Of a stretch of 39,254 nucleotides of DNA, positions 16,918 to 39,254 are shown in pieces. Origin of the DNA: a virus; UHGV virus genome UHGV-0143367. One strand, given 5' to 3'. Both the position numbers and the translations under genes were made by a program. Numbering within the stretch: the first letter of the stretch is position 1; every line of letters begins with the position of its first letter. The notes under the pieces were generated by a model, which saw only the letters and a list, made by a program, of their open reading frames with translations, made no database searches and was not told where the DNA came from.

Positions 16918-17376
16918 TTAAAAATCGTCGAAATCGTTTCCCGCTTCTCTGCCACCTTGCCCCGGATTAGCAACTCTGACCCGGCTGTTCGGGTCCAGTT
17001 TCAGAACGACGCTCAGCCTGATGAGCTGCGAAATGTACTTATCGCGCGCTTTCACCGCGGCGCCCAGCTTCTGGCCGCCGGCAGCAGTTTCATCGCCTAT
17101 CCCGTCGCCTTTGATTTCCTGATTCGCGTCGTACAGCAGCTGCACGGTGTTGCAGTACTCCATCAGCAGGTAGCAATCTTCCATCTCAAAATTTCCACGG
17201 TCGATCATCAGCCGGCAGGTCCGTTTCCAGGCATCGACTGCCATATCACCCAGCAATTCCTCTGGCGGTGAAACGGCGCGAGTTACGGAACTGACCTGCG
17301 TGCCGGCATTGTTCGGTTTCCGGCCTCCGCCAGGAGAGCGCACTCCTGTCGCCATTCGTGCACCTCCATGCATCAA
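16918..17376 (-). CDS. Terminase small subunit
   Basis: 152 aa immediately upstream of terL; Gly-rich N-terminus. Confidence 0.7.
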   Translation of the reverse strand: MMHGGARMATGVRSPGGGRKPNNAGTQVSSVTRAVSPPEELLGDMAVDAWKRTCRLMIDRGNFEMEDCYLLMEYCNTVQLLYDANQEIKGDGIGDETAAGGQKLGAAVKARDKYISQLIRLSVVLKLDPNSRVRVANPGQGGREAGNDFDDF

Positions 17377-18171
17377 TTGCGTTTTCTGTTACGTTAAAAA
17401 TCACCAAAAAAAAGATCTTATTTCCCACGCGTAAAAATCGACTTGAAGCGGCAGTCCTCAAACACGAAAGGGGTTAGGGATTTTCCCCCCCCCCCCTACC
17501 CCCCGGCTGGCGGCGGTTCTGTAGCCGGCCTGCCGGGGTCCGCTGCTCAGGGCGCGCGGGTCGGGCAATGGGTGTGTGGGCCAGGCGCTGATCTTCTGGT
17601 TGCCGTCGGTGCGGCTGCAATTCACCACAACTGGAAGCGCCCTGGCCTCACACCGCATGCTGAGGCGTGGTGGTTGTCCATCGGGTTCAGGACGCTTCCA
17701 TGTTATGAGCTGGCAATAAAAATCCCGGCGTACCGGGATTCGCTCTGCTGACCCTTGCAGTGGGAGACTGGATCACCTCCTTCATTGCGCTTATGGGTGG
17801 CGCACTCATCACAAGGAGAAGGGCACCAGAAAGCTGTGGCGGGTTATCGCCACTCTTTCCCTGAAGGGTGGCCCTTAGAGCTATGCGCCAACGTTCTGAT
17901 GCCCTTATCGCTGTGATGCCGCCACACTTTCGCAGTGGCCGCGCCCATGCCGTGGGTGGCGCTTAGGGTTCGTCTCTGCTCCCCCGCAGCTGTAACCGGT
18001 GCGCTTATCGGCGTTCGCGCTGCCTTACCGGTGCTTCTTTTCTTATTAACCCTCACCAGATGCAAAGCTGGCTCTCTACTCGGAGACTAGGGGGCCGGTT
18101 ACTACCCAGCCATCGCCGCCGTTCGGCTGCTGCGGTCTACCCGCTTTAATGCTTCATCTTCTTTCCCTCCG
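17377..18171. other. Non-coding GC-rich region upstream of terS; putative cos packaging region containing a C12 homopolymer
   Basis: About 800 bp with no convincing ORF; HNH-terS-terL arrangement typical of cos packaging; C12 run at 17485-17496 followed by TACCCCCC. Confidence 0.4.
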
Positions 18172-24888: not shown

Positions 24889-25196
24889 GCGCCCCCCTGA
24901 TCTGCGTCGGGTAAACGCTTAATTAGTTCCTGCACATCATCAACAATTTTCTCAGCCTGCAGGCGAAGGTCGCTTTTCGGAGTAGGGCGATCCCATTTTG
25001 CCATCTGGGCGCTTTCTTCTGCAGAATGCGTTGCCAACCGAGACAGCTGTCCGTTAAGACCATCATCAATATTGCGCGTTTCGTCAGCTTTCATGCCGTT
25101 ACACTGCCCATATTCAACATCAACATATTCGCGAATATCCTGGCTTGTCGCAGTATCTGGCACTTCAATTTCGACTGTCACTGTTACTACTTTCAC
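24885..25196 (-). CDS. Hypothetical acidic protein
   Basis: 103-aa ORF. Confidence 0.35.
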   Translation of the reverse strand: MKVVTVTVEIEVPDTATSQDIREYVDVEYGQCNGMKADETRNIDDGLNGQLSRLATHSAEESAQMAKWDRPTPKSDLRLQAEKIVDDVQELIKRLPDADQGGA

Positions 25197-37140: not shown

Positions 37141-39042
37141 TTAATTTTCTGGGAAATACGCAAACCATGCTGATTTCATGGCACTGCTGATACTATCCGC
37201 CGCGCCACTCCAGGCGTATAGCTGCCCCTTGTATTTGAAACGGATCGTCCAGCTGCCGTCGTCACTACGAACGGGCGCGGAGAAGCGTGGACGAGTGTCT
37301 ATTGGTACTGGTTTTTCCTCTTCGGCCTCGGCGGTCACGCCATCTTCTCGGCCTTCCTCTTCAGCTTCCAGCGCCTGGGTATCGTCACTGGTTTCCTCTC
37401 TATCGGCACCGCTATCGCCAGCGAGGTCGTCTTCACCATCCAGTTCGTCAGAGGTTATGACAATAGAGGGCGCATCTGCATTGTTAATCGTACTGCTCAT
37501 AGCCAGCGCCTCAGCAACAAAATCAAGATACCGGCGAACTAGCGTCGGGTTAAATCCAGCATCTCGTAATATTTTTGTGTTGATGACGATATCAGCTGAT
37601 TCCTCCACCAGCCGCTTTGTTGTTTCATGAATACGGATACCGGCATCGCCCCTGGCGAAGCCAGGCATTTGGTCGTCAAGCGCTTGTAGAGCAGCGAGGC
37701 GCTTATTTTCAATCCCCGTTTCCGGGCGCCAGCTGCGTGAGAAATTATGCAGTTTGAACTGTTTGTAGTGCAGCTGCGTATTTTCGTCGTCATGCCCCAG
37801 GATTTCAGAGAAAAAGACGTCCTCATCAACGTTTTTCCAGCGCGGGTCGTAGCGGAAAAACGCCTCATAGGTGATACGCGCATAAATTGCGCGCGTGTCT
37901 TTGAATGTTCGGCGGTCGTCGCCGAAGAACAGCTTCGCGTGCTGGTTAAATGTGTTACCAAGAATTGATGCGATGCGCACATTTGCGGCCCGGTAGCTAT
38001 CATCGTTCAACAGAGATCTGATTTCGTCAAAATCAGCCGCTGCGGGGCAACTTCTCAGTTCATTTAAACGTTGAACGAACAGGGCCGGGTCGCACAGCAC
38101 ATAAATTTTACGCCCCTTATCCTCGCCGGTTCGTTTTTTGGCCTGCCCGTAGAAAATAACTTCATACTTGCCGGTAACCTCAAATTCTCCCTGAACCATC
38201 ACCTCAATCAATCGACGCCCGGATACGGCTGCTAGCGCGAACGCCAGCGGCGCCATATCCTTACGTTGCGTGATAAGTGATGGTTCAAACGCCTTGTAGA
38301 TCTGCTCGGTCACAGCCTGCATATATTTGGGGTAGTCCAAGAGTACAGTTGACCGTTTCTTCTCGCTGAGCACCTCGCCCCAGCGCTGCTGTATCGATGA
38401 GCGTTCTGCCGGACTCAACTGCAGGTGATACAGAATTTCATGGTTGATTTTCAGGCCGTTCAGATCATCCAACAAGCGGGTTCCCTGTTGGAACGCGGCA
38501 TGCATTTCGGTTTCGACCGACTTCCAGTCTTGGCTGGTCAACGCGTTAAGATAGATGCTCCAGGCAGGGTATTTTTTTGCCAGGCGCGTCAATTTTTTCT
38601 CCGCAGCCGGTCCGAACTTCATACCCGAAAGCACCTCCGCCAGCGGCATAATTTCCTTCAGTTGGCCCTGTAGATTGCCGTATGCCTGACGAATATCTGC
38701 CGCAGGCATAGATTGCCACGCCTGTAATTCAGCACTGTAGGCGGGGTATTTTGCCGCTAACTTTTCAATGCTGCTGGTGAAGTGATGGTGCAAACGGTCG
38801 TCGAACTGTTTACGAATACGGGTCATATACGCGTTATAAGTATTGGCTGTAATGCGTTTCTTCAAACCGTTACCACGGAACTTCCTTTTATCTAAAAATA
38901 GCGCGTTTTTAACACGTGTAGCCGCAGCCTTATATTTTCGTGTCTTATCTCCCTGTGGGATGTCGGACGCTTCGATAGCGTCAACGTCCGCCACCAAATC
39001 AGAGATGATTTTACCAATTCCGCCATCGCCTAGCTTCGCCAT
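37141..39042 (-). CDS. telN: Protelomerase (telomere resolvase) TelN
   Basis: 633 aa; long blocks match N15 TelN as recalled (QGDKT, NALF.DKRKFRG.GL.KRITAN, HLQLSPAER.SIQQRW, MAPLAFALAAVSGRR, WKNVDEDVFF.EILGHDDENTQLHYKQFKL.NFSR.WRPE, MPGFARGDAG); acidic C-terminal tail; GAGGGGGG Shine-Dalgarno. Confidence 0.95.
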   Translation of the reverse strand: MAKLGDGGIGKIISDLVADVDAIEASDIPQGDKTRKYKAAATRVKNALFLDKRKFRGNGLKKRITANTYNAYMTRIRKQFDDRLHHHFTSSIEKLAAKYPAYSAELQAWQSMPAADIRQAYGNLQGQLKEIMPLAEVLSGMKFGPAAEKKLTRLAKKYPAWSIYLNALTSQDWKSVETEMHAAFQQGTRLLDDLNGLKINHEILYHLQLSPAERSSIQQRWGEVLSEKKRSTVLLDYPKYMQAVTEQIYKAFEPSLITQRKDMAPLAFALAAVSGRRLIEVMVQGEFEVTGKYEVIFYGQAKKRTGEDKGRKIYVLCDPALFVQRLNELRSCPAAADFDEIRSLLNDDSYRAANVRIASILGNTFNQHAKLFFGDDRRTFKDTRAIYARITYEAFFRYDPRWKNVDEDVFFSEILGHDDENTQLHYKQFKLHNFSRSWRPETGIENKRLAALQALDDQMPGFARGDAGIRIHETTKRLVEESADIVINTKILRDAGFNPTLVRRYLDFVAEALAMSSTINNADAPSIVITSDELDGEDDLAGDSGADREETSDDTQALEAEEEGREDGVTAEAEEEKPVPIDTRPRFSAPVRSDDGSWTIRFKYKGQLYAWSGAADSISSAMKSAWFAYFPEN

Positions 39043-39054
39043 GTGCCCCCCTCA

Positions 39055-39176
39055 TTATCGTAACAATATGCGCAAACATTACACCTAAAAGGCTAAAAAT
39101 CAACCTATAAATCATCGTAACATAATTCTAATTATGTGTAAATAATTATCGTAACTGTTAATTAATTTATCGTAAC
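39055..39176 (+). repeat. Four direct copies of ATCGTAAC (mostly TTATCGTAAC) between the telN start and the telomere palindrome; inverted copy GTTACG at 39193-39198
   Basis: Exact 8-mer at 39057, 39114, 39148, 39169 in an AT-rich stretch; candidate TelN occupancy/regulatory repeats. Confidence 0.55.
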
Positions 39177-39200
39177 ATCATTTGCATATACTGTTACGTT

Positions 39201-39254
39201 AAACGACACACATTATTAAATATACGCGCGTATATTTAATAATGTGTGTCGTTT
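39201..39254. repeat. Telomere resolution site (telRL-like): perfect 54-bp palindrome centred on TATACGCGCGTATA
   Basis: AAACGACACACATTATTAAATATACGC|GCGTATATTTAATAATGTGTGTCGTTT is its own reverse complement; central (CG)3 in TATA context resembles the N15 telO core; located ~160 bp upstream of the telN start. Confidence 0.85.

Follow-up and report, generated by a model that had tools for sequence, protein, structure and literature searches.

The short repeats located between the protelomerase gene telN and the telomere site telRL of an as yet uncharacterised telomere phage of enterobacteria are real and conserved and look functional; judged from their sequence, they are the homologue of the repeats which flank telRL in phage N15. 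They were investigated in a window of 39,254 nucleotides, i.e., the whole stretch of DNA analyzed (UHGV virus genome UHGV-0143367). The kind of element which they represent is already known from N15, and they do not constitute a new kind of system. On balance, these boxes probably act as non-cleaved accessory protelomerase boxes of the telRL region, of the N15 type, which would both build the telomere complex and autoregulate telN.

A search of the whole window for the core motif ATCGTAAC retrieved exactly four exact copies, all on the plus strand and all in the interval that separates the telN ATG from the terminal palindrome (Table 1). They follow one another at intervals of 57, 34 and 21 bp, without regular phasing; three of these direct copies have the form TTATCGTAAC and the remaining one reads TCATCGTAAC. 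This recount reproduces the four copies, their spacing and the longer form common to three of them, as reported in the first-pass annotation made from the sequence alone. The inverted copy that had been described next to the palindrome is also present and abuts it, but it is imperfect: TTAACGTAAC, on the minus strand at 39193-39202, agrees at nine of 10 positions and shares two bases with the palindrome arm, which starts at 39201. The full motif extends over about 12 nt and, on the telN strand, reads TGTTACGATRAT. A weight matrix of 20 nt was made from the box copies and scanned over the window. Its six top matches were the five array sites (20.0 to 26.3 bits) and an orphan site at 17382-17401 (19.6 bits), the latter being the only match above 12 bits outside the array in the whole window.

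Table 1. Coordinates of the repeat boxes, of telN with its predicted expression signals, of the telomere site and of the sopC-like palindromes in the window.
Feature	Position	Strand	Details
telN, protelomerase gene	37141-39042	-	633 aa; proposed box binder; Pfam TelK_N, TelK_muzzle, ResT-TelK_cat, TelK_stirrup
telN Shine-Dalgarno	39046-39053	-	GAGGGGGG; read from sequence; 3 nt upstream of ATG at 39042
Box 1 (proximal)	39051-39070	-	CATATTGTTACGATAATGAG, telN strand; ATCGTAAC core 39057-39064 (+); 22.0 bits
Predicted telN promoter P2	39076-39103	-	-35 TTGATT 39103-39098; 16-nt spacer; -10 TAATGT 39081-39076
Box 2	39108-39127	-	AATTATGTTACGATGATTTA; core 39114-39121; 26.3 bits, top matrix match of the window
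Predicted telN promoter P1	39114-39142	-	-35 TTTACA 39142-39137; 17-nt spacer; -10 TACGAT 39119-39114; upstream TG
Box 3	39142-39161	-	TTAACAGTTACGATAATTAT; core 39148-39155; 20.0 bits
Box 4	39163-39182	-	AATGATGTTACGATAAATTA; core 39169-39176; 24.8 bits
Box 5 (inverted)	39187-39206	+	TATACTGTTACGTTAAACGA; GTTACG core 39193-39198; 20.0 bits; adjoins outer end of telR arm
telN-side (right) half of telRL	39201-39227		Core TATACGCG/CGTATA; tip/cut centre between 39227 and 39228
Hairpin read-through	39228-39254		Reverse complement of 39201-39227; not the true far arm of telRL
sopC-like palindromes	695, 4671, 11202, 16901, 19842, 23319, 29046, 32247, 32503, 37115

Chance is a poor explanation for the repeats. 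The array region has a GC content of 25-33% (53% for the window), and in dinucleotide-preserving shuffles of the local sequence (158 bp, 30% GC), any 8-mer reached four or more copies in 46 of 20,000 shuffles (0.23%). When the whole window was shuffled, ATCGTAAC occurred 0.76 times on average and reached four copies in two of 100 shuffles, clustering not being demanded. The initial claim that such a recurrence is not expected by chance is sustained.

The window ends with a perfect 54-bp palindrome (39201-39254, 27 + 27 nt), its last base lying exactly 27 nt past the centre. This sequence, at first described as a telomere palindrome, is partly an artefact. An identical TelN occurs on at least 24 public contigs, and an uncut telRL together with the identical TelN was found in L074 (NCBI GCA_032558115.1, 46.5 kb; telRL centre at 2815/2816) and in L075. 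In these uncut contigs, the telRL arms are complementary over only 20 nt, the far arm reading ...TTAACAGAACAC/ATTATT... and the telN arm GTGTGTCGTTTAA..., and the final 27 bases of the window result from the assembly reading through the hairpin. Another contig (L077) opens with the very 54-nt palindrome that closes the window, and two others (L078 and L079) begin a few nucleotides within it. Collectively, the palindrome stopping at the window end, the arms of the uncut contigs and the contigs which start likewise indicate that what was sequenced was a linear plasmid ending in a hairpin; the stop at 27 nt would be consistent with de Bruijn assembly at k = 55. The core ACGCGCGT is common to N15 and many other loci. 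On a metagenome scaffold (L073, 729-4902), two telN copies are found head to head, inverted across the telomere, a duplication which reflects either read-through of the hairpin during assembly or a telomere junction that had been replicated but not resolved.

The uncut contigs also revealed that the array, which had been placed between telN and the palindrome, does lie there but forms only the telN-side half of the element, a mirror half being located beyond telRL. In L074, nine boxes are found in about 400 bp between a TacA/GNAT toxin-antitoxin pair and telN. In both L074 and L075, the far-side boxes, at -208, -108, -83 and -44 from the telRL centre, share one orientation, and the telN-side direct boxes, at +54, +75, +109 and +166, have the opposite one; the inverted box is at +32. 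On the telN side, the boxes are confined to about 200 bp from telRL (+32 to +166), with the start of telN at +185. The far-side copies are found downstream of both a convergent gene and the terminator-like hairpin of this gene, where no gene starts. Alignment of the nine L074 boxes gives T-GTTACG-(A/T)-T-(A/G)-A-T, GTTACG being present in all nine and the form TGTTACG[A/T]T in eight. Since boxes occur on both sides of telRL and point the same way relative to the telomere, each resolved hairpin would carry a sub-telomeric array. The toxin-antitoxin genes of L074 (1445-2306) encode a TacA-type antitoxin and a GNAT acetyltransferase (TacT-like toxin pair); as they are flanked by parA and by the far side of telRL, they would adjoin the other telomere in the linear prophage.

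Conservation was assessed among relatives gathered by TelN similarity. No relative above about 70% nucleotide identity was found in annotated phage and plasmid collections; the nearest one with a name, annotated as coming from Citrobacter freundii, shares 92% TelN identity. Within the telN-telRL region, conservation is concentrated in the boxes. Across an alignment of seven clade members (A1, TelN identity 54-71%), 20 of 44 columns in boxes are invariant vs 6 of 113 elsewhere (Fisher p = 1.4e-8), the spacers having diverged, and TGTTACG of box 1 is unchanged in all seven.

The positions of the boxes are conserved as well. Box offsets were mapped at 13 loci, among them phiKO2-like loci and N15 (L026), and the offsets from the telRL centre are kept across clades, at +32/33, +75/76, +100 to +109 and +154 to +167, and on the far side at -44/45, -83 and -108/109. 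The proximal box is found at +154 to +167 in all clades (+157 in N15, L004 and phiKO2-like loci, about +166 in the window), box 2 (+109) is conserved across the clade, and L081, L083, L010, L002, L003 and L057 each have a box at +75 or +76. The inverted box at +32/33 was found at 10 of the 13 mapped loci, including the phiKO2-like L029 and L033, and was not found in L010, N15 (L026) and L004. Box 4 (+54) is the least conserved, since it is mutated to GTTGCG in L081 (92% TelN identity).

At the level of sequence, the boxes appear to resemble the outer telRL arm, without the inner cleavage core. In N15, the box and the outer telRL arm are 80% complementary (ATATCAGCACACAAT vs ATTGTGTTACGATAT; pair I13), and of the 23 arm-like 15-mers (at most four mismatches) found genome-wide, nine are inside a 340-bp region around telRL. 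Among 17 uncut loci, the density of arm-like 15-mers in the flanks (±250 bp) is 9.7 times that of the remaining ~7 kb, and all 50 flank 15-mers are in mirror orientation, i.e., oriented like the arm next to them, a count which overstates independence because the loci are mutually related. In the window phage, the two arms align with the box matrix in a common register, at per-position p-values of 1.3e-4 and 1.3e-3, but the resemblance is weaker than in N15: the arms score 10.9 and 4.5 bits vs 14-24 bits for the boxes (leave-one-out), and the boxes have GTTACG in nine of nine cases vs GTTCTG and GTGTCG in the phage's own arms.

In N15, the 0.4-kb telRL region amplified with tosLOC and tosROC-2 has GTGTTACGAT at its right edge. 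The 3' end of the tosROC-2 primer used for this region, ...GGATATCGTAACAC, contains the N15 box (PMC2847241). This box, GATTGTGTTACGAT, agrees with the copy near 2700 in L074 over 14 of 14 bases and lies within the outermost 29-nt inverted repeat around N15 telRL (pair I2); in addition, the 8-mer GTTACGAT is common to the window phage and the N15 box (N15 record position 24956). The identity of the N15 box, the location of the repeat and its overlap with tosROC-2 support that the window repeats are the counterpart of the N15 flanking repeats. The equivalence tentatively put forward in the first-pass annotation is further substantiated by the mirror two-sidedness of the arrays and by the shared offsets from the telRL centre.

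In N15, the tos region ('telomerase occupancy site') was reportedly described by Deneke et al. in 2000 and 2002 as telRL plus outer repeats, presumably those named L1, L2, R1 and R2. To our knowledge, these flanking repeats have been known for about 25 years without an established role. Similarly to the tos repeats, the boxes of the window phage are found between telRL and telN as well as on the far side, in mirror orientation, and appear to be related to the outer telRL arm. While N15 has a single GTTACGAT box and mainly AGAACA flanking repeats, the window phage uses one homogeneous box nine times. In phiKO2-like loci, ATC(G/A)TAACACAA boxes at -45, +33, +100 and +157 match the offsets of the window phage but, unlike in this phage, CGTAAC and CATAAC are mixed. 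The PY54-like locus L063 has ATACAT-type repeats and no GTTACG box. In PY54 and P840, an inverted repeat flanks telRL, and its requirement for processing in vivo is debated (PMC10612081). As the P840 flanking repeat is dispensable for processing (PMC10612081), such flanking repeats are not needed for cutting.

On the telN side, the boxes overlap one predicted telN promoter, flank a second one and lie directly upstream of the ribosome-binding site, an arrangement conserved in L010, L082, L083, L013 and L002. The gene product shares ~55% amino-acid identity with N15 TelN (Pfam E-values from 1e-24 to 1e-41). P1 has nine of 12 matches in the promoter scan, with the TG, and the same arrangement is found in L010 and L082; its -10 falls inside box 2, whose TGTTACGAT doubles as an extended -10. 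P2, with a score of eight of 12, is below the promoter-scan threshold. It may nevertheless be a telN promoter, and a P2-like TTGAYT/TTGAAA-16/17-TAnnnT element is found at the equivalent place in L010, L013, L014, L002, L082 and L083. P2 lies between box 2 and box 1, which bracket it, and box 1 is downstream of the predicted P2 -10 and immediately upstream of the telN Shine-Dalgarno, 3 nt from it. Since boxes 1 and 2 are at the predicted promoters and ribosome-binding site, their occupancy should lower telN transcription. The idea that the repeats are operators of telN is therefore in line with the telN-side boxes, which overlap or bracket two promoter-like sites and abut the Shine-Dalgarno, but it leaves the far-side array unexplained and is incomplete, because four far-side copies are found where no gene starts.

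TelN is the protein known to read telRL. In the case of TelK, the monomer has been reported to bind preferentially to its target and then to wait for its partner (PMC3575837). It has also been shown that, once the reaction is over, TelN remains bound to the hairpin and protects it against SbcCD, higher-order structures having been speculated (PMC12624138), and that the distal contacts on the replicated telomere are made by the stirrup domain (PMC10686437). Together with telRL reading, these properties make TelN, acting through its stirrup, the most economical assumption for the binder of the boxes. In the mechanism which we favor, TelN monomers would sit on the boxes without cutting, the stirrup domain serving as the reader. 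After replication, two mirror-image arrays would be present per telomere junction, and box occupancy would keep TelN beside the site where two monomers must assemble. Box-bound TelN would also enlarge the nucleoprotein complex staying on the hairpin. On the telN side, occupancy would cover the -10 of P1, bracket P2 and lie between the predicted P2 transcript start and the ribosome-binding site, and through this occupancy of the promoters, free TelN would repress its own gene.

The proximal box is near-invariant despite differing arms, which fits a constraint other than co-evolution with TelN, exerted by RNA polymerase or by another conserved protein. The boxes are also more uniform than would be expected from their likeness to the phage's own arms, and better conserved between clades than the telRL arms are, both of which count against TelN. 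The boxes could be bound by some other sequence-specific protein, either a telomere-associated or regulatory protein of the phage or a conserved host protein, that would organize the sub-telomeric DNA or control telN. We consider this alternative unlikely, although the TGTTACGAT core is near-invariant over clades in which TelN shares ~50-55% identity and the telRL arms differ, and although the boxes of the window phage match one another far better than they match the arms. In addition, N15 and phiKO2-like loci have nearly identical telRL arms and differ in part of their flanking repeats (AGAACA vs ATAACA). However, no candidate protein was found among those considered below, and the apparent likeness to the arm, along with the fixed distance from the telRL centre, points to a telRL reader.

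Less probable still is that the boxes are mere sigma-70 promoter elements, TGnTACGAT being the extended -10 of several promoters firing away from the telomere. In this case, recognition by the host RNA polymerase would explain the invariance across clades; eight of the nine boxes keep the T, A and T of the -10 hexamer and the upstream TG, and box 2 has a -35 at 17 nt, kept in L010 and L082. Nonetheless, the invariant C-G positions of the boxes are the central ones, which matter least in the sigma-70 -10 hexamer, and most boxes have no -35 partner. Furthermore, the four far-side boxes face the end of the convergent toxin gene, with nothing to express, box 1 is 14 nt from the ATG, too close for a normal promoter, and the box positions follow the telRL centre and not the ATG. 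Finally, that the repeats are functionless, arising by chance in AT-rich DNA or as remnants of local duplications, is very improbable: the low GC content and the two of 100 whole-window shuffles would allow it, but the local shuffle (p ~0.002), the nine copies in ~400 bp of the uncut locus, the concentration of invariant columns in the boxes between diverging spacers and the positions kept in phiKO2-like and N15 loci all speak against it.

Several specific candidates were considered and rejected. ParA has an F-type operator, CTTTGC-N28-GCAAAG, which adjoins parA (L074 1043-1084, near the parA start); in both hexamers and 28-bp spacing, it corresponds to the ParA-operator type described for F, N15 and phiKO2. 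For ParB, ten sopC-like TGGGACCAYGGTCCCA palindromes are found elsewhere in the window and none in the array. CI/Cro operators and RepA iterons were dismissed as well, repA, cI, cro and Q being inside the window with no box near them; in N15, the origin is inside repA. The high-affinity motif of H-NS, TCGATAAATT, has one match in the array, with no enrichment, and DnaA boxes and IHF sites have at least three mismatches to their consensus there (by eye). Regarding a structured RNA, Rfam gives only sub-threshold microRNA-hairpin matches, located on the palindrome.

The accessory protelomerase boxes proposed here have parallels in two known systems. By analogy only, they are like the arm-type sites of lambda integrase in that they flank the core site of an enzyme with the chemistry of a tyrosine recombinase, are uncut and could build a higher-order complex. 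However, lambda arm sites are unlike the core in sequence and are read by a separate N-terminal domain, whereas the boxes appear to be similar to the outer portion of their core site. The C-terminal domain of TelN (residues ~585-633, window 37144-37290), which follows a long acidic linker, was considered as an arm binder of the lambda-integrase type. It belongs to no Pfam family, has conserved W, G, A, M and W positions and, when searched alone, gave no homologues. An AF2 model of this domain, based on a 29-sequence alignment (pLDDT 83.4), has a beta-beta-beta-alpha topology, with two short beta bridges, a beta hairpin and a helix. This model matches only dsRNA-binding domains, with marginal scores, and no integrase arm-binding domain, and thus lends the idea no support. 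In the literature, no known function is reported for the last ~50 residues of TelN (PMC12624138).

The second parallel is with the Rap1 arrays of yeast telomeres, which similarly consist of several protein sites beside a chromosome end. TelN has itself been paralleled with yeast Rap1, as an end protein blocking Mre11-Rad50 (PMC12624138). Rap1 arrays block Mre11-Rad50, and a protective part for the boxes of the window phage would be an analogy with them; a single-site 40-bp hairpin is protected by TelN in vitro (PMC12624138). Pursuing this analogy, the mirror arrays on both telomeres might be loading sites for a multi-TelN cap, loosely shelterin- or Rap1-like, which would coat or fold the last ~200 bp of each end and combine protection of the hairpin from SbcCD, pre-loading of the two monomers for resolution and a titration sensor setting telN transcription by telomere number. 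We regard this extended proposal as speculative and rather unlikely.

Importantly, one homogeneous and easily mutated box used nine times provides a clean experimental handle, and the boxes are obvious DNA candidates for the higher-order structure of TelN and for the control of TelN dosage. The comparison presented here shows that distant telomere phages keep their boxes at fixed offsets from the telomere centre. It may also guide how much flanking sequence is kept in linear vectors based on TelN.

Outside the array, the orphan box at 17382-17401 (+), TTTTCTGTTACGTTAAAAAT, has a 13-mer in common with the telomere-abutting copy. It is located in a short insertion, with a cos-like region on one side and the 5' end of the small terminase gene (terS, 16918-17376, minus strand) on the other, and none of the 46 distinct relatives examined carries it; it has no place in the accessory-box model. 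Upstream of terS, a C-rich tract, ggggttagggattttccccccccccccctacccccc, is found at 17455-17500. This is probably the cos region, since the neighbouring block AATCCCTAACCCCTTTCG is conserved in relatives. The F-sopC-like 16-bp palindrome TGGGACCA(C/T)GGTCCCA occurs ten times in the window vs 0.28 times expected by chance, and these palindromes are presumably ParB centromere sites, of which N15 has four. One of the copies lies 11 nt past the telN stop codon.
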